A stretch of DNA of 64,000 nt from Escherichia phage vB_EcoP_EP32B. The stretch lies in sequence record OR544955. One strand, 5' to 3'. The position numbers were made by a program, and so were the translations under genes. The notes beneath the pieces are model-generated. The model did no database searches. It was given only the letters and a program-made list of their open reading frames with translations, and was not told the origin of the DNA. Below are positions 5,302-62,326 of this stretch, one piece after another; positions within the stretch are counted from its first letter, which is position 1; each line of letters starts with the position of its first letter.

Positions 5302-5876
5302 TATGCAATCTCCATCTCACGAATCAAATCAGTAATAAACGAGTTTATATCTTCTTTTGCAACAATTTTTATTTTACGAAGTTTTTCATTATCTAATACT
5401 GCCGCTTCGTAAGTATCTACTGCAGCTAAAGGTCCTTTATATTGCGGATACTTACGAGCTTCATCACCTTTATCGTACCACACTAAAGGCTCGTCCGGAT
5501 ATGAAACTAAATTGTAAAATTTCTCACGATTTTCATTGATATGATAAAGAACTTGGTCTCCACCGGCATTAGCATATTTCTGAATAGAAGCTTGATACGC
5601 TGCTTCCTGAGATGTAATCCAACCATAATACGGGTCGTAGTTATCGTTACACATCAAAAGAACCCAGTATAATTGAGGGTTGCCATAAATTATGTTTGCT
5701 AGTTCTTCAGGACGCGGAGAGCCTTTAATATAATAAGAACGTAATCTATAATTGGCAGCAACACGCTTAAAGTACTCTTTATAGTTACGAAATATGTCTG
5801 TCATAGGAATAGTAGGTGCATTCTTATTAACTGTTTTAGCACTATATCCTATTGGGTCGAAGAATGTAAATAACAA
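5301..5876 (-). CDS. 53: baseplate wedge protein gp53
   Basis: 191 aa, [33 protein letters not shown], matches recalled T4 gp53; upstream of gene 5. Confidence 0.9.
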
Positions 5877-5903
5877 GATAGTCTCCTTCCAATATGAAAT
5901 TGG

Positions 5904-5911
5904 TATAAATA
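5904..5911 (+). promoter_or_regulatory. T4-type late promoter TATAAATA upstream of gene 4/2 ORF
   Basis: exact TATAAATA about 27 bp before ATG 5938, followed by AGGAGG. Confidence 0.5.
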
Positions 5912-5918
5912 ATAATAC

Positions 5919-5926
5919 TATTTATA
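5919..5926 (-). promoter_or_regulatory. T4-type late promoter TATAAATA (minus strand) upstream of gene 53
   Basis: plus-strand TATTTATA reads TATAAATA on minus strand, about 43 bp upstream of gp53 start; divergent arrangement with the gene 4 promoter. Confidence 0.45.
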
Positions 5927-5937
5927 AGGAGGACAAC

Positions 5938-7134
5938 ATGGCCTACTCTGGTAAATGGGTCCCAAAAAATTTAAAAAAATACCGTGGAGACCATACCAAA
6001 ATAACGTATCGTTCAAACTGGGAAAAATTCTTTTTCGAATGGTTAGATAAAAATCCAGAAATTATTGCATGGGGTAGTGAAACAGCAGTAATTCCATATT
6101 TTTGTAATGCTGAAGGTAAAAAACGTCGATACTATATGGACATATGGATGAAAGATGCATCAGGTCAAGAGTTCTTTGTAGAAATAAAACCAAAGAAAGA
6201 AACTCAACCACCTATTAAGCCTGCAAATCTTACTACCGCAGCAAAGAAACGTTATATGAATGAAATATATACCTGGTCTGTGAACTGTGACAAATGGAAA
6301 GCTGCCTCAGCTATGAGCATATTCCAAATTATATCTGAAGGCGTACAAGCCCCTAAGATTGCTCAGTCTATGAATGAAAGAAAATGGATTGAGATAGGAT
6401 TAGAATACAAGAAAGCTAAAGAGAAAGGAATCACTGCAAAAGCATTTGCAGAATCAAAAGGAATAAAATACTCGTCGTTTACATCTGCAATGTCTAGATA
6501 TGCATCATCTATTAAGACCGCACAGAAAATTGAAACGCTTGAATCTAAACCTAAAAATAAACTCAATAAGCAAGAACGTCAACTTCTGATGATAAACTCG
6601 TTTCGCAGTTCAATACGAGAAAAGATTAGAAATGAAGGCGCAGCAGTAAACAACAAATCATCTAAGTGGTTTGTTGAAACAATTAAGAAAAGTGTAAAAG
6701 GTCATAAAGTAGTCAAGCCTACGCCAGGCAAAATTTATACTTACGTGTATGATGCTAAACATAAAGATACTCTGCCGTATTGGGACAGATATCCTTTGAT
6801 TATTTATTTAGGATTAGGTAAACATAATTTGATGTATGGATTAAACTTGCACTATATCCCACCTAAAGCACGACAACAGTTTCTTGAAGAATTGCTGAAG
6901 CAATATGCTAGCACAACTACTATTACTAATAACACAAAGTTGAAGATAGACTGGAGCAAGGTGAAAGGATTTCAAGGTGCTGACAAAATGATTAAAGCAT
7001 ACCTGCCTGGCCACATTAGAGGAACAATAACAGAAATAGCTCCTAAAGACTGGGCTAACATAATCATGTTACCTACTCAGCAGTTTATGTCAAAAGGAAA
7101 ACGTTTCTCTGCGAATACTGTTTGGAAATCTTAA
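5938..7134 (+). CDS. single 398-codon ORF combining a head completion (gp4-like) N-terminal region and a DNA end protector (gp2-like) C-terminal region
   Basis: ATG 5938 preceded by AGGAGG; [19 protein letters not shown]...; no in-frame stop until 7134; total length close to T4 gp4 (150 aa) plus gp2 (274 aa); internal Met at codon 126 (MSIFQII) leaves 273 codons. Confidence 0.55.
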
Positions 7135-7875: not shown

Positions 7876-8610
7876 ATGGAGCTAATCTTTTTAAGTGGCA
7901 TCAAACGTAGCGGTAAAGACACTACTGCTGATTACATCAATTCAAACTTTAAATCCGTAAAATACCAATTGGCATATCCGATTAAAGACGCTCTAGCAAT
8001 AGCCTGGGGACGTAAACATGCTGAAAATCCTAATGTATTCACAGAGTTGAAATACGAATACTTTGAAGGCATTGGATACGACCGTGAAACACCATTAAAT
8101 CTCAATAAGTTGGATGTTATTGAATTATTGGAAGAAGCGCTAATTTATTTGCAAAGCCAATATTTACCAATTAATAATGTTAAAGTATTATCATCGTTAG
8201 AAGGTGGATATTCATATCTAGATATTAAACCGTATGAAGCCCTGCGTGAAGCTATAAATAATATCAACGACACATGGTCAATCCGCCGTCTTATGCAAGC
8301 CCTCGGTACGGATGTTGTCGTTAATTTATTTGACCGTATGTATTGGGTTAAACTTTTTGCATTAAACTATATGGATTATATTGGAAGTGATTTCGATTAC
8401 TATGTCGTAACCGATACACGCCAAGTCCATGAAATGGAAACCGCTAGAGCGATGGGTGCTACAGTTATTCATGTGGTTCGCTCTGGTACGGAATCCACCG
8501 ATAAACATATTACAGAAGCTGGGTTGCCTATTGAAGAAGGCGATTTAGTTATTACAAACGACGGCTCTTTAGAAGAGCTTTATTCTAAAATTGAAACAAT
8601 CTTAAGGTAA
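7876..8610 (+). CDS. 1: deoxynucleoside monophosphate kinase gp1
   Basis: 244 aa; MELIFLSGIKRSGKDTTADYI P-loop; C-terminal region matches recalled T4 gp1 closely. Confidence 0.9.
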   Translation: MELIFLSGIKRSGKDTTADYINSNFKSVKYQLAYPIKDALAIAWGRKHAENPNVFTELKYEYFEGIGYDRETPLNLNKLDVIELLEEALIYLQSQYLPINNVKVLSSLEGGYSYLDIKPYEALREAINNINDTWSIRRLMQALGTDVVVNLFDRMYWVKLFALNYMDYIGSDFDYYVVTDTRQVHEMETARAMGATVIHVVRSGTESTDKHITEAGLPIEEGDLVITNDGSLEELYSKIETILR

Positions 8611-10772: not shown

Positions 10773-11029
10773 GAATTATGTGTTATTATTAATTCATACC
10801 CTCTATTACCAAAGGTGCTCTAAAGTGCCTTTCATAATAGAAAGTTATTTAGGCCCTGTAGCTCAATGGTGCAGTAGCTGCTCTGGAAAACCTGTTCCAA
10901 ATTGCAACAGAAGAACGCGAAGAAGTTACATTATGGATTGAAGATAACGCAGGTCTGAATCTCCAGGACGCGATCTCATTATCCCACAATAGTATCACTG
11001 TTCAAGGCTGGGTATCATCTAGTTATTCT

Positions 11030-18413: not shown

Positions 18414-18956
18414 ATGAGAAAAGCACTACTCGCTGGTCTATTTGCTCTTTCATTATCAGCACATAGCTCCGAGCATACTTTTAGTAATGTCCAACTCGAT
18501 AACTTGAATTATGCTTATCAGTTTGGGGAACAGTTTTCTAAGGACGGAAAATTTAAAACGCATGAAAATATGCATAAGAAAGGACTTGGATACATAATGG
18601 CCGCAATACTATGGCAGGAATCATCTGCCGGTATTAATCTTAAAGATAAGAAAGGTCACCATGCGTATGGAATGTTCCAAAATTATCTACCAACAATGAG
18701 GGTAAGAATTAACCAGCTTGGTTATAATATGACTGATGCCCAAATTAAGAAAATGCTATCTAAGCGGTCTAATTCAGCCAGATGGGCTTATATCGAATTT
18801 TCTTATTGGTTAAATATACATAACGGGGATATAAGAAAAGCTATATCCTCATATAATGCGGGATGGAAGACAAGTGCTGGAAGTAAATATGCTTCTGAAG
18901 TCCTAGAAAAGGCTAATTACCTTAAATCAAATAAACTACTGGAAATAAAAGAATGA
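18414..18956 (+). CDS. secreted lytic transglycosylase-like protein
   Basis: signal peptide MRKALLAGLFALSLSAHS; SLT-like motifs WQESSAG, GMFQ, SYNAGW. Confidence 0.6.
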   Translation: MRKALLAGLFALSLSAHSSEHTFSNVQLDNLNYAYQFGEQFSKDGKFKTHENMHKKGLGYIMAAILWQESSAGINLKDKKGHHAYGMFQNYLPTMRVRINQLGYNMTDAQIKKMLSKRSNSARWAYIEFSYWLNIHNGDIRKAISSYNAGWKTSAGSKYASEVLEKANYLKSNKLLEIKE

Positions 18957-19300
18957 CCAAAATGTTGGCTTTAATAGTTGGCTTGGTTTCATTTAGCGCT
19001 CTTGCTAATACTACATATACTGATGTAACGGAGTATACAAACAGAACGGCGTCTGATTATTGTGGTAAAAGTCAAGAGTGTAAAGTAGATTTTTCACAAA
19101 AATTGTTATATGCGTATAAAGACGGAGAAAAAGATGGGGCGTCTAGTAGGTTCAAGGCGTCTACCTTAATTAAAAGATACTATAAAAAATGGCAAATATT
19201 AGAATGCTCGGTGGCGGAACCTAAAGATAAGGCAGCATGCAATTCTATGGTGGACCGTCTAGTTGACTCTTATAATAGAGGACTTGCAGCAAGTGATTAA
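18953..19300 (+). CDS. secreted Cys-containing protein (115 aa)
   Basis: signal peptide MTKMLALIVGLVSFSALA. Confidence 0.55.
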   Translation: MTKMLALIVGLVSFSALANTTYTDVTEYTNRTASDYCGKSQECKVDFSQKLLYAYKDGEKDGASSRFKASTLIKRYYKKWQILECSVAEPKDKAACNSMVDRLVDSYNRGLAASD

Positions 19301-19760
19301 AAACTATATCAAGGGCGATATTGTCGCCCTGTTTTCTAAAGGTAATAATATTGCTCATGGGTGTAATTGTTTTCATACAATGGGCGCTGGTGTGGCAGGA
19401 CAATTAGCAAAGGCTTATCCAAAAATTTTAGAAGCCGATAAACTTCAAACCGAATTCGGAGACGAGTCTAAACTCGGGACTTATTCGGTTTATGAAAAAT
19501 ATTTTAAGACCCATAAAGCTTATTGCTTTAATCTTTATACACAGTTTGAGCCTGGACCTAATTTTGAGTACTATGCTTTAATGAATTGTATAATAGAATT
19601 AAATGAATTCGGAAAGAATAAGATAACAAAGCCTGTAATTTATATGCCAAGAATTGGTGCAGGTATCGGTGGCGGAAACTGGGATGTCATCGAAGAGATT
19701 TTAGACACATATTCCACTAAACTAGAAATTGTGATTGTTGATTGGGAACCATTATTATGA
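19293..19760 (+). CDS. macro domain protein (ADP-ribose binding/processing)
   Basis: NCFHTMGAGVAGQLAKAY and PRIGAGIGGGNWD resemble the two glycine-rich macro-domain motifs; start uncertain (GTG 19293 or TTG 19263). Confidence 0.6.
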   Translation: MIKNYIKGDIVALFSKGNNIAHGCNCFHTMGAGVAGQLAKAYPKILEADKLQTEFGDESKLGTYSVYEKYFKTHKAYCFNLYTQFEPGPNFEYYALMNCIIELNEFGKNKITKPVIYMPRIGAGIGGGNWDVIEEILDTYSTKLEIVIVDWEPLL

Positions 19761-19969
19761 ATATACATTATCCACATCCATATGACCCAAAGAATAAGGC
19801 AGTAATTATTCGTCAATGGGAACGCATTTGCCGTACTAAATGCCCAATTAATAGTCCACATGATGTAGATAAAGACTATATTGGAACATTCGTTGAATAT
19901 ACCTTTATTGATAAGAAAGGTCGTAAACAACATGTAGAAGAATATTGCTTAAAGGTTACATGGTTATGA
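19757..19969 (+). CDS. hypothetical protein (70 aa)
   Basis: ORF 19742..19969, start at MNIHYPHPYD. Confidence 0.45.
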   Translation: MNIHYPHPYDPKNKAVIIRQWERICRTKCPINSPHDVDKDYIGTFVEYTFIDKKGRKQHVEEYCLKVTWL

Positions 19970-20496
19970 GTCTTACTGCCGCCCATAACTATAAAGAACG
20001 TGGCATGGGTGTATTAGTTCTTAAACCGGCTATTGATACTCGCGATTCAAAAGGTGAAATAGTCTCTCGTATTGGTATTCGTCAGGACGCCAATATAATT
20101 ACAAAAGACATGGATATCTTTGAATTCTATAAATGGGCTGCAGCACAAAAGGATATTCATTGTGTATTTGTTGACGAAGCTCAGTTCTTAACTACTGAAA
20201 AGGTGTATCAACTTAGTCGTATTGTTGACGTATACAATGTGCCGGTAATGGCATATGGACTACGAACAGATTTTAAAGGTAATCTATTTGAAGGTTCTCA
20301 AGCATTAATGGCTATTGCCGATAAGCTTGTTGAACTTAAAGGTGTCTGTCATTGCGGTAAAAAGGCCACAATGGTAGCTAGAGTCACGGAAGACGGACTT
20401 CCAATTACAGATGGCAGTCAAATTGAAATTGGTGATACTGATAGATATGTGTCATTATGCCGGAAGCATTGGAATGATTTGACAGGGTTGTTATAA
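19960..20496 (+). CDS. tk: thymidine kinase homolog lacking the N-terminal P-loop (probable remnant)
   Basis: MVMSLTAAHNYKERGMGVLVLKPAIDTRD... aligns with TK1-family Tk from just after the GKS Walker A; in-frame stop 19924-19926 upstream. Confidence 0.7.
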   Translation: MVMSLTAAHNYKERGMGVLVLKPAIDTRDSKGEIVSRIGIRQDANIITKDMDIFEFYKWAAAQKDIHCVFVDEAQFLTTEKVYQLSRIVDVYNVPVMAYGLRTDFKGNLFEGSQALMAIADKLVELKGVCHCGKKATMVARVTEDGLPITDGSQIEIGDTDRYVSLCRKHWNDLTGLL

Positions 20497-23922: not shown

Positions 23923-24204
23923 ATGAAAAAATTAGTAATTGGTTTATTCGCAGTAATGATGGCATTCTCTGTTGGTGCTACCACGGGTGCTGCTGGCGGT
24001 AGTGCAGGAGCTGGTGGTAACCAGTCTTCTGGGCCTTCTAATGGTTCGGTAAATGCATCACATTCTCAGGGTATTGAGAACATTAGATCAAGCTATATTA
24101 ATAGCACGGCCGGACAAGCAACTGAAGCATGGTCAAAGGGCCGAGTAGTTACTCGCTCCGTATTCTGTGATATGCCTAATTATGTTGCTAAGTGCGATAA
24201 GTAA
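23923..24204 (+). CDS. secreted Gly/Ser-rich protein (93 aa)
   Basis: signal peptide MKKLVIGLFAVMMAFSVGA, low-complexity Gly-rich region, two Cys near C-terminus. Confidence 0.6.
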   Translation: MKKLVIGLFAVMMAFSVGATTGAAGGSAGAGGNQSSGPSNGSVNASHSQGIENIRSSYINSTAGQATEAWSKGRVVTRSVFCDMPNYVAKCDK

Positions 24205-34210: not shown

Positions 34211-34519
34211 ATGATTAGTTTTGAGATTGAAATTTATGGCATCCCTGAAGAAGTAGGACGTTGTCCAGGATGTTATACTGTTACAAAACTTTTAAAGGAA
34301 CTCAATGCTCCTTATACATTTTATAAAGTCCTCACTAATAATGGTAAGATTGAATATGACCGTCCTTTAATCGTATCTCTTGCTAAACGTGCAGGATTCA
34401 CTTCACTTAATATTCGTTATCCTGTCATATTTTTAAATGGTAAGAAACAAAAGAATATTGCAGAGTTTAAAAAGTCCTTGATTTCATTAGGATACGACTC
34501 TGATATCATAGAAGATTGA
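34211..34519 (+). CDS. glutaredoxin-like protein (NrdH-like?)
   Basis: CPGC redox motif near N-terminus, about 100 aa, adjacent to nrdG. Confidence 0.5.
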   Translation: MISFEIEIYGIPEEVGRCPGCYTVTKLLKELNAPYTFYKVLTNNGKIEYDRPLIVSLAKRAGFTSLNIRYPVIFLNGKKQKNIAEFKKSLISLGYDSDIIED

Positions 34520-40015: not shown

Positions 40016-41578
40016 ATGAAATCATTTAAATTAAATCGTGTTCGTTATCAAAACATCATGTCAGTAGGTGGGAATCCTATTGATATCCAATTAGATAAAG
40101 TCCAAAAGACATTAATCACTGGTAAAAATGGCGGTGGTAAATCTACGATGTTAGAAGCCATTACTTTCGGACTTTTCGGTAAACCATTTCGTGATGTTAA
40201 GAAAGGACAAATCATTAATAGCATGAACAAGAAAGAGCTCTTAGTTGAGCTTTGGATGGAATTCGATGATAAAAAATACTTCATTAAACGTGGCCAAAAG
40301 CCCAATATTTTCGAAATCTCCGTTGACGGTGTTCGTCTCGATGAATCTGCCAGCAGTCGTGACTTCCAAGAAGAATTTGAACGTAGCATCGGAATGTCAT
40401 ACGCGTCTTTTAAACAAATCGTTGTGCTTGGGACGGCAGGGTATACCCCTTTCATGGCTCTTAGCACCCCTGCTCGTAGAAAGCTTGTTGAAGACTTATT
40501 AGAAGTTGGCACACTCGCTGAAATGGATAAAATCAATAAGTCTCAAGTTCGCGAACTTAATTCTCAGGGACAAGTTCTTGATGCCAAGAAAGATGGTATT
40601 ATCCAACAAATTAAGATTTATAACGAGAATATCGAACGTCAAAAGAAATTATCTGGTGATAATGTAGCGCGTCTACAGAATATGTATGACGACCTAGCCA
40701 AAGAAGCTCGGTCATTAAAAGCAGAAATCGAAGAAGCTAATGAGCGACTACTTAATATCGTTCTTGATGAAGACCCTACTGAGGCATTCAACAAGATAGG
40801 ACAAGAAGCATTCTTGATTAAATCTAAAATTGACTCATATAACAAAGTTATTAAGATGTATCATGATGGCGGTACATGTCCTACTTGTGCATCACAGTTG
40901 CACCAGGGTGACCCTATTGTCTCTAAGATTACCGATAAGCTTCATGAATGTAATCACTCATTCGAGCAACTTACATGTCACAGAGATAATCTGAGTGTCC
41001 TAGTGGACGAATATAGAGCTAATGTCAAGACTAAACAGGACCTTGCATCTGATATTCGTACCAAGAAACAAGCAATGATTGCCACTATTGATAAAGCTAA
41101 GAAAGTTAAAGCTGCAATAGAACAAGCCTCAGCAGAATTTATCGACCATGCCGATGAGATAGCTTTGCTTCAAAAAGAACTTGATAAAATCATTAAAACA
41201 AAATCGGATATCGTTCTTGAAAAATACCATCGTGGTATTATCACAGATATGTTAAAAGATTCTGGTATTAAAGGTGCTATCATTAAAAAATATGTGCCTC
41301 TGTTCAACAAGCAGATTAACCATTATCTTAAAATCATGGAAGCTGATTACGTGTTTTCTATTGACGAAGAATTCAATGAATCTATAAAATCACGTGGCCG
41401 TGAAGAGTTCAGTTATGCTTCATTTAGTCAAGGCGAAAAAGCGCGTATCGATATCGCATTGTTGTTTACATGGCGAGATATTGCTGAAAAGGTCTCTGGT
41501 GTTAAAATCAACACAACGTGTTCATTATTTCTCACAGAGACCATGACCCACAAGCTTATGGACAACATCTTCAAATGA
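40016..41578 (+). CDS. 46: recombination ATPase subunit gp46 (Rad50/SbcC-like)
   Basis: 520 aa; Walker A GKNGGGKST, long coiled-coil, CPTC zinc hook. Confidence 0.9.
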   Translation: MKSFKLNRVRYQNIMSVGGNPIDIQLDKVQKTLITGKNGGGKSTMLEAITFGLFGKPFRDVKKGQIINSMNKKELLVELWMEFDDKKYFIKRGQKPNIFEISVDGVRLDESASSRDFQEEFERSIGMSYASFKQIVVLGTAGYTPFMALSTPARRKLVEDLLEVGTLAEMDKINKSQVRELNSQGQVLDAKKDGIIQQIKIYNENIERQKKLSGDNVARLQNMYDDLAKEARSLKAEIEEANERLLNIVLDEDPTEAFNKIGQEAFLIKSKIDSYNKVIKMYHDGGTCPTCASQLHQGDPIVSKITDKLHECNHSFEQLTCHRDNLSVLVDEYRANVKTKQDLASDIRTKKQAMIATIDKAKKVKAAIEQASAEFIDHADEIALLQKELDKIIKTKSDIVLEKYHRGIITDMLKDSGIKGAIIKKYVPLFNKQINHYLKIMEADYVFSIDEEFNESIKSRGREEFSYASFSQGEKARIDIALLFTWRDIAEKVSGVKINTTCSLFLTETMTHKLMDNIFK

Positions 41579-45072: not shown

Positions 45073-47757
45073 ATGAAAGAATTTTACTTAACGGTTGAAC
45101 AGATTGGTGATTCAATTTTTGAACGTTACATCGATTCTAATGGCCGTGAACGTACTCGTGAAGTAGAATATAAACCATCACTGTTTGCTCATTGTCCAGA
45201 AAGTCAGGCTACGAAATATTTCGATATCTACGGTAAGCCGTGTACTCGTAAGTTGTTCGCTAATATGCGTGATGCCTCCCAATGGATTAAACGTATGGAA
45301 GATATCGGACTTGAAGCACTTGGCATGGACGATTTCAAATTGGCGTATTTGTCTGACACTTATAACTATGAAATCAAATACGACCATACAAAAATTCGTG
45401 TGGCTAACTTCGACATCGAAGTAACATCTCCGGACGGGTTCCCTGAGCCGTCACAAGCAAAACATCCGATTGATGCTATCACCCATTATGACTCAATTGA
45501 CGACAGGTTCTACGTATTTGATCTATTGAATTCTCCATATGGTAATGTAGAAGAATGGTCTATCGAAATTGCAGCTAAGCTTCAAGAACAAGGTGGTGAT
45601 GAAGTTCCATCCGAAATTATCGATAAAATCATTTATATGCCGTTCGATAACGAAAAAGAATTGTTGATGGAATATCTCAACTTCTGGCAACAGAAAACTC
45701 CTGTCATTTTGACTGGATGGAACGTTGAGTCATTTGATATTCCATATGTGTATAACCGAATCAAGAATATTTTTGGCGAATCTACTGCGAAACGTTTATC
45801 ACCACATCGTAAAACTCGTGTTAAAGTTATCGAAAACATGTATGGTTCTCGTGAAATCATTACATTGTTCGGTATCTCTGTTCTTGATTATATTGACCTT
45901 TACAAAAAATTCTCTTTTACCAATCAACCGTCGTATTCTCTGGATTACATTTCAGAATTTGAATTGAACGTTGGTAAACTGAAATACGACGGTCCTATTT
46001 CTAAACTTCGTTATAACATCATCGACGTATATCGTGTATTGCAAATTGATGCTAAACGCCAGTTCATTAACTTGAGTTTGGACATGGGTTATTATGCTAA
46101 GATACAGATTCAATCTGTGTTTAGCCCAATTAAAACATGGGATGCTATTATTTTTAATAGCCTTAAAGAACAAAACAAGGTGATTCCACAAGGTCGTTCG
46201 CATCCAGTTCAACCTTACCCGGGTGCTTTTGTTAAGGAACCTATTCCAAATCGATACAAATATGTAATGAGTTTCGACCTTACATCTCTGTATCCAAGTA
46301 TTATTCGCCAAGTGAATATTAGCCCGGAAACAATAGCAGGAACGTTTAAAGTAGCTCCACTGCATGATTATATTAACGCAATCGCTGAACGTCCTTCAGA
46401 TGTGTACAGTTGCTCTCCTAACGGCATGATGTATTATAAAGACCGTGACGGTGTTGTTCCAACTGAAATCACTAAGGTCTTTAATCAACGTAAAGAACAT
46501 AAAGGTTATATGCTTGCAGCTCAACGTAATGGTGAAATAATTAAAGAGGCATTGCATAATCCTAATCTTTCTGTTGACGAACCATTAGATGTTGATTATC
46601 GTTTCGACTTCAGCGATGAGATTAAAGAAAAGATTAAAAAGTTGTCTGCTAAATCTCTTAATGAAATGTTGTTTAGAGCTCAACGTACTGAAGTTGCAGG
46701 TATGACTGCACAGATTAACCGTAAATTGCTTATCAACTCACTTTATGGTGCACTTGGAAACGTTTGGTTCCGTTATTATGATTTGCGTAATGCTACTGCA
46801 ATCACAACATTCGGACAAATGGCTTTACAGTGGATTGAACGTAAAGTTAATGAATATCTGAATGAAGTTTGCGGTACAGAAGGTGAAGCTTTCGTTCTTT
46901 ATGGTGATACAGACTCTATTTACGTATCTGCTGATAAAATTATCGATAAGGTTGGTGAATCTAAATTCCGTGATACCAACCATTGGGTAGACTTCTTAGA
47001 TAAGTTCGCTCGTGAACGTATGGAACCTGCTATTGATAGAGGTTTCCGTGAAATGTGCGAATACATGAATAATAAGCAACATTTGATGTTCATGGACCGA
47101 GAAGCTATCGCTGGTCCTCCGCTCGGTTCTAAAGGTATTGGTGGATTTTGGACTGGTAAGAAACGTTATGCATTAAACGTGTGGGATATGGAAGGTACTC
47201 GTTACGCTGAGCCTAAACTCAAAATCATGGGTCTAGAGACTCAGAAATCTTCGACACCTAAAGCAGTACAGAAAGCTCTTAAAGAATGTATTCGTCGTAT
47301 GCTTCAAGAAGGTGAAGAATCATTACAAGAATATTTTAAAGAGTTTGAAAAAGAATTCCGTCAATTGAATTATATTAGCATCGCGTCGGTATCTTCTGCG
47401 AATAACATTGCTAAATATGATGTCGGTGGATTCCCTGGCCCCAAATGTCCGTTCCATATTCGTGGAATTCTGACATATAACCGAGCTATCAAAGGTAATA
47501 TCGATGCACCGCAAGTTGTAGAAGGTGAAAAAGTATATGTTCTGCCTTTACGTGAAGGAAACCCATTCGGTGATAAATGTATCGCATGGCCTTCTGGTAC
47601 GGAAATCACTGATTTAATCAAAGATGATGTACTTCATTGGATGGACTACACGGTTCTCCTTGAGAAGACATTTATTAAACCACTTGAAGGATTCACATCA
47701 GCAGCTAAACTCGATTACGAGAAGAAAGCATCTCTGTTCGATATGTTTGATTTTTGA
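45073..47757 (+). CDS. 43: DNA polymerase gp43 (family B)
   Basis: 894 aa; exonuclease motif FDIEV, polymerase motifs DxxSLYPS and YGDTDS. Confidence 0.95.
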   Translation: MKEFYLTVEQIGDSIFERYIDSNGRERTREVEYKPSLFAHCPESQATKYFDIYGKPCTRKLFANMRDASQWIKRMEDIGLEALGMDDFKLAYLSDTYNYEIKYDHTKIRVANFDIEVTSPDGFPEPSQAKHPIDAITHYDSIDDRFYVFDLLNSPYGNVEEWSIEIAAKLQEQGGDEVPSEIIDKIIYMPFDNEKELLMEYLNFWQQKTPVILTGWNVESFDIPYVYNRIKNIFGESTAKRLSPHRKTRVKVIENMYGSREIITLFGISVLDYIDLYKKFSFTNQPSYSLDYISEFELNVGKLKYDGPISKLRYNIIDVYRVLQIDAKRQFINLSLDMGYYAKIQIQSVFSPIKTWDAIIFNSLKEQNKVIPQGRSHPVQPYPGAFVKEPIPNRYKYVMSFDLTSLYPSIIRQVNISPETIAGTFKVAPLHDYINAIAERPSDVYSCSPNGMMYYKDRDGVVPTEITKVFNQRKEHKGYMLAAQRNGEIIKEALHNPNLSVDEPLDVDYRFDFSDEIKEKIKKLSAKSLNEMLFRAQRTEVAGMTAQINRKLLINSLYGALGNVWFRYYDLRNATAITTFGQMALQWIERKVNEYLNEVCGTEGEAFVLYGDTDSIYVSADKIIDKVGESKFRDTNHWVDFLDKFARERMEPAIDRGFREMCEYMNNKQHLMFMDREAIAGPPLGSKGIGGFWTGKKRYALNVWDMEGTRYAEPKLKIMGLETQKSSTPKAVQKALKECIRRMLQEGEESLQEYFKEFEKEFRQLNYISIASVSSANNIAKYDVGGFPGPKCPFHIRGILTYNRAIKGNIDAPQVVEGEKVYVLPLREGNPFGDKCIAWPSGTEITDLIKDDVLHWMDYTVLLEKTFIKPLEGFTSAAKLDYEKKASLFDMFDF

Positions 47758-47797: not shown

Positions 47798-48273
47798 ATG
47801 AAAACTACTCCTATTACTATCGCTATTGACGCAATCATAAAACAAGCTTCTTCTTTGGCCGCTATGGCCAAAGTAATTAGTCAAAACCCTGCTCGTTATA
47901 ATGCTATTCTAGAAACTCTTCGACGCCCTGGACTGAGTAATTATGAAAGTCGTGTAATTATTACAGGTGTTGGTAAGAACGCTAATATCGCAACTAAAGC
48001 TTCCGAGACATTTGCTTCACTCGGTATCCCGAGTATGTACTTGAACACTGGGCATTATTCTCACGGTGATGCAGGATTCATTGCGCCTAATGAGGCATCG
48101 CGGTAGAGGTTGATGAGAATTCTCTGGCTCCGACAATGTCTACTACATTGTTGTTAGCGCTTATCGATACGTTCGCTATCAACCTTTCGTCTGAACGTGG
48201 ATTTACCTCTAATGATTTCCTTAAGTTCCATCCAGGCGGTGCACTAGGTGCCATGTTACGAGGCGAACAATGA
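47798..48273 (+). pseudogene. SIS-domain sugar-phosphate isomerase (arabinose-5-phosphate isomerase KdsD/GutQ-like), disrupted
   Basis: N-terminal fragment RVIITGVGKNANIATKASETFASLGIPSMYLNTGHYSHGDAGFI stops at 48106; a different frame encodes the SIS C-terminus LAPTMSTTLLLALIDTFAINL...FHPGGALGAMLRG; central segment missing. Confidence 0.6.
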
Positions 48274-52021: not shown

Positions 52022-52738
52022 ATGGGAAAACATAACACAATGAAATATATCAAAGCCGCAGATTTTCAAACCGCATTTAAAGCAGTCAATCGTGAAATTT
52101 TAGAAAACCCGGAATTCGTAACTGATTCTCGTATTGGACGTTGTAATGAAATTGGGTCTATGACAGTAGTTGTTGACACTCCATCATCATTCAAAATGAC
52201 CGACCCGCGTATTAACCGCATCTCTTATGAATATGCCGAAGACTTCTGGAAGTTTATGATTTCTGGTGGTACTGACGCAGAAGAAGCGTTTAAGGCATAT
52301 CCTAATGTCGCTAAATTTATTTCTAAACCAAAATCAGATGCTTTGCCTGCAAACTTCAACACTTTCTATGGTCCTCGCATTGCGGCCCAATTACCAGCTC
52401 TTCTAAAAGAACTTAAAGAGAAGCCTAACTCCAGAAGAGTTGTGTTCCAAATTCTAGAAAGTTCTGATCAGGCTTTGCTTGATTCGGACGAAACGCTTGA
52501 ATATCCATGTACTGACTCAGTGACTTATTATATTCGTGACGGTAAGCTTTATACCCACTGTCATATGCGTTCCCAGAACTGTGCTGTTGTTATGCAGTTG
52601 GATTTTTATCTCCAAGGAAAATTACTTCATTATATCGCTAACGAATGCGGTGTAGAAGTTGGTGATTATACTCATACCATGGTAAGTGCCCATGTGTTTG
52701 AACGTGATTTTGATTATGTTAAAGGATTCCTTGACTAA
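52022..52738 (+). CDS. thymidylate synthase-fold enzyme, divergent deoxypyrimidine nucleotide hydroxymethylase (gene 42 position)
   Basis: YPCTDSVTYYIRDGKLYTHCHMRSQNCAVVMQLDFYLQ aligns with the catalytic Cys and MRSxD region of TS / dCMP hydroxymethylase; rest of protein unlike T4 gp42 as recalled. Confidence 0.7.
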   Translation: MGKHNTMKYIKAADFQTAFKAVNREILENPEFVTDSRIGRCNEIGSMTVVVDTPSSFKMTDPRINRISYEYAEDFWKFMISGGTDAEEAFKAYPNVAKFISKPKSDALPANFNTFYGPRIAAQLPALLKELKEKPNSRRVVFQILESSDQALLDSDETLEYPCTDSVTYYIRDGKLYTHCHMRSQNCAVVMQLDFYLQGKLLHYIANECGVEVGDYTHTMVSAHVFERDFDYVKGFLD

Positions 52739-53638: not shown

Positions 53639-54187
53639 ATGGCTAAAATTATTTTAGTAGACGGGCCGGATAATGCTGGTAAAACAACTTTCATTAATGA
53701 CATAATGGAAATTAGTGAAAGATATGTAAAGATTGATTTCCCTAAACGAACAGTTGATGGGCGTTTCGATGTTAAGTCTCGAAATGAAGTCGGCTGTTTC
53801 GAAACGATGTTGAATTATTTGGACCCTACTAAGATTTATCTGTTAGACCGTGGATATATTAGTAACTGGGTTTATGGACGTATTCGACAAGATGTGGACT
53901 CGGTTCTTGACGTTTATGAACAGGATTATGTTCGTCTTTGCCAAAACCATGATGTGTTCACAATTATTTTAACACGTAACGAAATGACTGAAAGTTTTGA
54001 AGACGACCTTATTACTTTGTCTTCATTCGGTTTTAATACAGTCATTTCATATTTTGAAGAGTTTGCAATTCATAACAAAATCCAAACGTATCAATTACTT
54101 AATCATGATGGTGCTAATAAAGTTATAGGATTTAACGCAAGCGAACGTAATAATTTGATTACAGAAATCATCAAATGGGCTCGTTAA
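53639..54187 (+). CDS. P-loop nucleoside/nucleotide kinase-like protein
   Basis: Walker A GPDNAGKTT at N-terminus, LLDRGY region; 182 aa. Confidence 0.65.
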   Translation: MAKIILVDGPDNAGKTTFINDIMEISERYVKIDFPKRTVDGRFDVKSRNEVGCFETMLNYLDPTKIYLLDRGYISNWVYGRIRQDVDSVLDVYEQDYVRLCQNHDVFTIILTRNEMTESFEDDLITLSSFGFNTVISYFEEFAIHNKIQTYQLLNHDGANKVIGFNASERNNLITEIIKWAR

Positions 54188-62011: not shown

Positions 62012-62326
62012 ATGGCGCACTTTAATGAATGTTCACAACTTATTTCTGGTGTTGATAAAGCAGAAGAAGCTTATTTTAATGCTCTGATTCACGAAGATAA
62101 AGACCCACTTCAGGTAATGCTTGATATGCAGAAATCTTTACAGGTTCGTCTGGCAAATGACAAGCCTGAACATAACAAACATCCTGATGAATTGGCTACT
62201 GCCGGTGATGTTGTTGATTGGCTGCGTAATCAGAAAGATTATATTGATGATGAATTCCGTGAACTGTTGACTTCACTTGGTGGTATGATTATAAATACAC
62301 CTGTAATTAAACAACAAAGGAGTTAA
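62012..62326 (+). CDS. 56: dCTP pyrophosphatase gp56-like (MazG-type), short form
   Basis: MAHFNECSQLISGVDKAEEAYF...ATAGDVVDWLRNQKDYIDDEFRELLTSLG; 104 aa, shorter than T4 gp56 as recalled. Confidence 0.65.
   Translation: MAHFNECSQLISGVDKAEEAYFNALIHEDKDPLQVMLDMQKSLQVRLANDKPEHNKHPDELATAGDVVDWLRNQKDYIDDEFRELLTSLGGMIINTPVIKQQRS
62290..62297 (+). promoter_or_regulatory. late promoter TATAAATA upstream of soc
   Basis: exact TATAAATA about 32 bp before soc ATG, within the 3-prime end of gene 56. Confidence 0.5.

Follow-up and report, generated by a model that had tools for sequence, protein, structure and literature searches.

The thymidine kinase gene (tk) in the window, that is, the whole 64,000-nt stretch of DNA analyzed here, begins past the Walker A P-loop. 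A single private deletion has very probably left a 5′-truncated, kinase-dead remnant of tk that reflects a defective genome or an artefact, rather than an enzyme that evolved to work without a P-loop. The window belongs to a T4-like phage of the genus Mosigvirus, and its best match was E. coli O157 typing phage 3 (NC_041863), with ~98% identity. Features of the locus are listed in Table 1.

Table 1. Features of the tk locus, and left endpoints of large deletions lying just past a start, in window coordinates.
Feature	Position	Strand	Description and basis
vs.1	18414–18956		Present, intact
vs	18953–19300		Present, intact
tk.4 homologue (macro-domain / A1pp)	19293–19760	+	Intact; Pfam Macro PF01661
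tk.3 homologue (70-aa ORF, DUF7202)	19757–19969	+	Intact; PF23832 full profile 1–70, E=2e-38; TGA overlaps next ATG
ATG AGT	19966–19971	+	Start and second codon of the deleted tk.2-position ORF; JQD51/F2 alignment, junction sequences
Truncated tk ORF	19966–20496	+	Begins past the Walker A P-loop
Deletion junction ATGAGT(C)/TTACTGCC	19971–19972	.	1 nt microhomology; alignment with relatives
tk codons 20–193 and stop	19972–20496	+	alpha/beta domain without beta1/P-loop, then lasso/zinc domain; PF00265 positions 19–176
Left endpoints just past a start	9402, 10870, 15992, 19972, 30238, 34224		Two internal-protein genes, tRNA-Met, tk.2-position ORF, two small ORFs

Direct reading of the sequence showed a TAA stop in the tk frame at 19924–19926 on the plus strand, located within tk.3 but in a different frame. 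The ORF map and the sequence placed the first in-frame start codons after this stop at TTG 19945, ATG 19960, and ATG 19966, and the end of the frame at 20496. ATG 19966 likely now serves as the start of the truncated gene. A Shine-Dalgarno-like sequence (AAAGG) was found upstream of it at 19951–19955, the codon overlaps the tk.3 stop (ATGA) and is thereby coupled to it, and the matching ATG in relatives, likewise preceded by AAAGG, opens the next small CDS in their annotation. The predicted product consisted of 176 aa, comprising Met-Ser followed by Tk residues 20–193, and alignment with T4 Tk and relatives showed that Tk residues 3–19, including MNAGKS, were missing. This truncation is a deterministic feature of the sequence rather than a statistical one, and chance is not at issue.

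Apart from this loss, the window protein is a homologue of the TK1 family. It matched Pfam TK (PF00265) with an E-value of 1.5e-48 (165 bits), starting at profile position 19 of 176, and TK1-type chains in the PDB with E-values of ~1e-11 to 1e-14, starting at chain residues 27–38. Alignment gave 79% identity to T4 Tk and 99% to relatives. The VDEAQF and GLRTDF motifs were kept, with all of the invariant columns (D70, E71, Q73, F74, R100, D102, and F103) present, as were the C-terminal zinc Cys/His pairs (CHCG ... LCRKH), where VCHCGKKAT and YVSLCRKHW were identical to those of T4 and the relatives. The beta1 strand and the Walker A motif (GxxxxGK[ST]; MNAGKS in T4-type enzymes) were absent. 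The intact Tk of a relative, by comparison, aligned from residue 9 and placed its AAMNAGKSSSLL opposite GPMYSGKTTELL, the P-loop segment of Thermotoga maritima TK (2ORW). A preliminary description of this DNA had reported the TAA stop and a first Met past the Walker A position, together with conservation of everything downstream of the P-loop, zinc-binding cysteines included; the sequence, the Pfam match, and the alignments with T4 Tk and relatives agreed with it on both points.

Typing phage 3 (NC_041863 tdk), JQD51 (PV204681), and F2 (NC_054913) carry tk at the same locus with the same neighbours as the window. Full-length tk is present there, with the part missing from the window contiguous with the remainder. 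Alignment showed a shortfall of 446 bp against typing phage 3 and of 423 bp against JQD51, with no bases added. The missing DNA comprised a pair of small ORFs, located where T4 has tk.2 and tk.1, and tk codons 1–19 (57 nt), which encode MASLIFTYAAMNAGKS[AS]SL in close relatives. Compared with close Mosigvirus relatives, the window is without tk codons 1–19 and both small ORFs located between tk.3 and tk; compared with T4, it is without tk.2, tk.1, and the N-terminal P-loop of Tk. The sequence spanning the junction was ATGAGTCTTACTGCC. Both ends of the deletion lay within coding sequence without repeats, the left end at the exact point where natural cassette variants diverge and the right end just 5′ of the invariant AAHNYKERGM patch. 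At the join, tk codon 20 came to follow the ATG-AGT of the first deleted ORF in the same reading frame, for which the chance was 1 in 3, and because of this in-frame fusion to a retained ATG-AGT, the 176-aa protein could be made.

The same comparison bears on the origin of the sequence now preceding tk. In the earlier proposal, tk had its 5′ end replaced by the macro-domain gene and the 70-aa ORF, and these two genes do directly abut the truncated gene. However, the gene order in T4 is regB, vs.1, vs, tk.4 (macro/A1pp), tk.3, tk.2, tk.1, tk, rI.1, and rI, and typing phage 3, JQD51, and F2 show a T4-like arrangement in which a pair of small, variable ORFs separates tk.3 from tk. The order vs.1, vs, tk.4, tk.3, ..., tk, rI.1, rI is also common to the window and T4, the Tk of which (NP_049719) is 79% identical over the retained part. 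The tk.4 gene is a 468-nt CDS in the same place in typing phage 3, JQD51, F2, and T4, and tk.3 is a 213-nt CDS in the same place in the relatives and T4. Since both genes normally precede an intact tk, as they do in T4 and all relatives examined, they replaced nothing, and the difference from the relatives is a pure loss of 423–446 bp with zero added bases. An insertion of the macro-domain gene and the 70-aa ORF in place of the tk 5′ end is therefore extremely improbable, and the proposal of a replacement was not borne out.

We also searched the window for a P-loop encoded elsewhere. No fragment of tk encoding the P-loop was found on either strand of the 64 kb. When the 30 N-terminal residues of Tk were used as a tblastn query, only residues 20–30 matched the window, at 19972–20004, and blastn with the deleted DNA from three relatives detected no copy of it in the window. 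A six-frame scan of the window for Walker A motifs yielded only unrelated ATPases (gp46, gp41, the thymidylate-kinase-like gene, and others). An in-frame upstream exon encoding the P-loop, which the preliminary description had named as the observation that would overturn its view, was thus sought and not found within the 64 kb, and on this sequence evidence the supply of a P-loop from elsewhere appears largely refuted within the window. A split or recoded gene, in which the P-loop would come from an upstream exon, a frameshift from tk.3, or a separate fragment, has next to no probability. A fusion by frameshifting would be geometrically possible, as tk.3 ends 4 nt into the truncated tk ORF (ATGA), but none of the six frames of the window holds a tk fragment with a P-loop, and the tk.3 product is a complete DUF7202 protein without Walker A. 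The ATGA overlap also occurs in relatives, where it normally couples tk.3 to the next small ORF, and the tk.3/tk overlap has no slippery site; the frameshift fusion of tk.3 to truncated tk was rejected on these two grounds.

Next, we examined the distribution of the truncated allele. A phage record carrying the tk deletion would rank first among the matches to the junction, and none of the best 40 of 646 matches in phage records aligned across it in one piece. The 18-mer spanning the junction had 0 matches in IMG/VR, and its 10 metagenome and 3 GTDB genome matches were all chance matches of 18–24 nt. Look-ups for identical proteins, made with the truncated Tk from each of three alternative starts, the truncated gp46, and the vs.1 product, returned no recorded entry. 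Conversely, MN[AST]GK[ST] was kept, after an ATG or GTG start, in all 43 of the 43 Tk homologues retrieved from IMG/VR.

During these comparisons, product names in public records were found to be shifted or duplicated. In JQD51 (PV204681; 2639–3460), the name "thymidine kinase" is given to the 213-nt rI.1 homologue and the 582-nt tk CDS is labelled "hypothetical protein", whereas the RefSeq record of F2 (NC_054913; 2351–2563) uses "thymidine kinase" for both tk and the rI.1 homologue. For the macro-domain gene tk.4, "phosphatase" is a widespread label.

The remainder of tk showed no secondary decay in the form of frameshifts, stops, or excess nonsynonymous change. Its 525 nt differed by 3–8 substitutions from each of six intact relatives; nonsynonymous changes numbered 0 against five of them and 1 against F2, and there were no stops. 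Residues 20–193 of the JQD51 and typing phage 3 proteins were identical to those of the window, with 3–8 synonymous nucleotide differences. This lack of decay indicates that the loss is either very recent or not biological, and the lack of nonsynonymous changes since the event leaves no lineage history visible.

The tk deletion was one of many in the window. Of its 64,000 bases, 63,999 aligned with typing phage 3, so that the window is without sequence that typing phage 3 lacks. We found at least 15 pure deletions of 77–4925 bp relative to typing phage 3 (8460 bp in total), with no bases inserted. They were located at window positions 6312, 9402, 10870, 13070, 15992, 17577, 19972, 28076, 30238, 31089, 34224, 41514, 48093, 62287, and 62460, and their sizes, in ascending order rather than in the order of position, were 77, 88, 92, 93, 133, 146, 160, 188, 216, 298, 390, 446, 594, 614, and 4925 bp. 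Eight further deletions of 12–35 nt (at 46011, 10636, 13914, 16035, 34914, 39863, 59618, and 60156) included several that shifted the frame, and the only insertion of at least 10 nt relative to typing phage 3 was one of 15 nt at 23991. Microhomology at the 15 large junctions was 0–2 nt (mean 0.87), about as expected for random cutting, and the lengths of four of the 15 were multiples of 3. Every junction tested against other relatives or the whole phage collection proved private to the window. By contrast, natural Mosigvirus pairs of similar divergence showed 1–5 breaks over 20 kb, mostly replacements with unmatched DNA on both sides.

Core genes were among those affected. In gene 46 (ORF 40016–41578), an 88-bp deletion at 41514 removed LILDEVFDG, the Walker B motif, together with the loop after it and shifted the frame, leaving gp46 (SbcC/Rad50-like) with 520 aa instead of the normal 562; none of the phage records shared this deletion. 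In genes 4 and 2 (5794–7134), a 77-bp deletion at 6312 took away 25 codons from the 3′ end of gene 4 along with the gene 2 ribosome-binding site, thereby fusing the head-completion gene 4 in frame to gene 2 as a single 446-aa ORF. The flanks of this junction were 100% identical to several phages, all of which have the extra 77 bp. Gene 46 and genes 4/2 are counted among the core genes of T4-like phages (PMC2993671). Private deletions that break core genes make it doubtful that the sequence is biologically real.

Several other genes were cut as well. In the gene for DNA polymerase (gene 43; 45073–47757), a 27-nt in-frame deletion at 46011 removed ESNHQRYIS just before YNIID, giving a product of 894 aa instead of the normal 903. 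A 160-bp deletion at 48093 removed the VLIHISRSGKTEE segment of a KpsF-like sugar-phosphate isomerase gene (47798–48106) and shifted its frame; the cluster of kpsF, a glmU-like gene, and a phosphoheptose isomerase gene is presumably tied to hydroxymethylcytosine arabinosylation in RB69-like phages. The 4925-bp deletion at 10870 started 18 nt into tRNA-Met and eliminated tRNA genes and approximately a dozen small ORFs, and an ARAGORN search for tRNA genes in the whole window returned none. The 298-bp deletion at 34224 took a small ORF along with codons 1–9 of a glutaredoxin-like gene, and the 594-bp deletion at 62287 cut a MazG-like NTP pyrophosphohydrolase after residue 92 and reached into the second gene downstream.

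The nature of these differences, which are losses only, lack homology at the joins, do not preserve frame, include lethal-looking hits in core genes, and have private junctions, points to a defective genome or a non-biological origin. From these sequence features, the window would most likely represent either a defective genome or an artefact of assembly or sequence handling. As a counterpoint to random loss, six of the 15 large deletions began 4–24 nt past an annotated gene or tRNA start, compared with ~6% expected for random positions; this clustering near gene starts might reflect module boundaries or the way in which the sequence was produced. We also considered a reference-guided consensus that dropped divergent replacement segments of a natural mosaic. 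Such dropped patches would fit the pattern, but divergence from typing phage 3 was not raised near the 15 junctions (1.4% vs 1.95%), which lends this candidate no support.

To evaluate the consequences of the tk truncation, we considered the fold of the enzyme and the other genes for thymidylate supply. The Walker A loop holds the phosphates of the ATP donor and is indispensable in P-loop kinases, and the beta1 strand lies in the interior of the P-loop (TK1/RecA-like) fold. We infer that the 176-aa protein, without beta1 and the GK[ST] loop, could neither bind and position the donor nor act as a kinase, and its folding is probably compromised. Because beta1 is interior to the fold, the stability of the truncated Tk is doubtful. 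The earlier suggestion that Tk is probably inactive is supported by the sequence, as beta1, the P-loop, and the start of helix 1 are gone with no upstream exon to supply them. The thymidylate synthase gene td (52022–52735) is intact, as are the adjoining thymidylate-kinase-like gene (MAKIILVDGPDNAGKTT; 53639–54184), which retains its P-loop, and the gene 1 dNMP kinase (7876–8607). With td and the thymidylate-kinase-like gene intact, the de novo route to dTMP and dTDP is unaffected by the truncation, and we infer that de novo synthesis of dTMP would cover the loss of tk.

One alternative is a genuine loss of thymidine salvage that was tolerated or even selected in a viable lineage, for example as the loss of a dispensable auxiliary gene or as an escape from toxic nucleoside analogues. 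Among T4-like phages, tk belongs to a group of auxiliary-metabolism genes, only some combination of which is needed (PMC2993671), and a gene that is dispensable in principle could be lost tolerably by a real phage. The intact de novo route (td and gene 1) in the window and the natural variability of the tk.3–tk region, where JQD51, F2/TP3, and p000v have different small ORFs, are likewise compatible with this alternative. However, a viable lineage should carry neither the private loss of Walker B in gene 46 nor the gene 4/2 fusion found in the same sequence. The tk junction was not seen in phage records (best 40 of 646 matches), IMG/VR, or metagenome and GTDB contigs, all of the retrieved Tk homologues were intact, and zero nonsynonymous changes relative to five of six relatives left no trace of a lineage. 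The deletion also ends in coding sequence without repeats, unlike the intergenic, motif-mediated exchange of cassettes (PMC2839356). A tolerated or selected loss is accordingly unlikely, although it is less so than the other alternatives.

A second possibility is that the protein without a P-loop gained a new role, either as a regulator or as a thymidine- or dTTP-binding subunit that poisons the tetrameric Tdk of the host. The truncated ORF is in frame and has taken over a start codon, the Shine-Dalgarno-like AAAGG, and translational coupling from the deleted ORF, so that production of the protein is conceivable given this functional-looking start, and the nucleoside-binding lasso/zinc part is complete. 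Nevertheless, this allele stands alone, with no evolutionary history behind it, established knowledge of the P-loop fold makes the stability of a protein lacking the interior strand doubtful, and the truncation is one in a series of indiscriminate deletions, which together render a new role highly improbable. It is similarly far-fetched that the P-loop-less Tk is expressed, binds thymidine or dTTP, and might co-assemble with host Tdk with dominant-negative or regulatory effect, or, more broadly, that the window might derive from a helper-dependent, deletion-riddled, defective T4-like genome persisting by co-infection. If true, the P-loop-less Tk would be a dominant-negative or regulatory subunit of the TK1-type Tdk tetramer of the host.

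Under the preferred reading of a recent private deletion, a single event would have taken out the two ORFs at the tk.2/tk.1 positions together with tk codons 1–19, and the ATG-AGT of the first deleted ORF would by chance have ended up in frame with tk codon 20. Provided that the DNA is real, the 176-aa protein may be translated from the start signals of the deleted ORF. As expected from the TK1 and P-loop fold, such a protein without beta1 and Walker A would be unable to phosphorylate thymidine and would probably fold poorly. The supply of dTMP would then depend on host Tdk and on the genes for thymidylate synthase and dNMP kinase, which are intact. The loss of tk would be very recent, with no apparent sign of selection, and would represent one of at least 23 private, homology-free deletions in the window, of which two put core genes out of action.

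The truncation itself carries little biological weight, as a dispensable salvage gene was cut by a recent private deletion. Its significance lies rather in the window, which is set apart from ~150 close relatives by a long run of clean deletions, core genes being among those hit. Any report of a "missing motif" or "truncated gene" in this window has to be read with caution, since it may be an artefact or stem from a defective genome.

Compared with known enzymes, the window Tk is homologous to those of T. maritima (2ORW) and Clostridium acetobutylicum (1XX6) from helix 1 on, including the C-terminal lasso/zinc part (E ~1e-14), whereas the first ~20–26 residues of enzymes of this type (beta1 and GxxxxGK[ST]) have a counterpart in the intact relative and none in the window. 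Natural exchange of cassettes among T4-like phages occurs between intergenic promoter/stem-loop motifs (PeSL) and spares adjacent genes (PMC2839356). Unlike this PeSL-mediated shuffling, the tk event ends within coding sequence, involves 1 nt of homology, and cuts a conserved gene. Like events in the hyperplastic regions of T4-like phages, such as PeSL shuffling and the deletion mutants of T4, it falls within a cluster of ORFs that are small, variable, and non-essential. The truncated tk is ordinary, with nothing to suggest a new enzyme variant.
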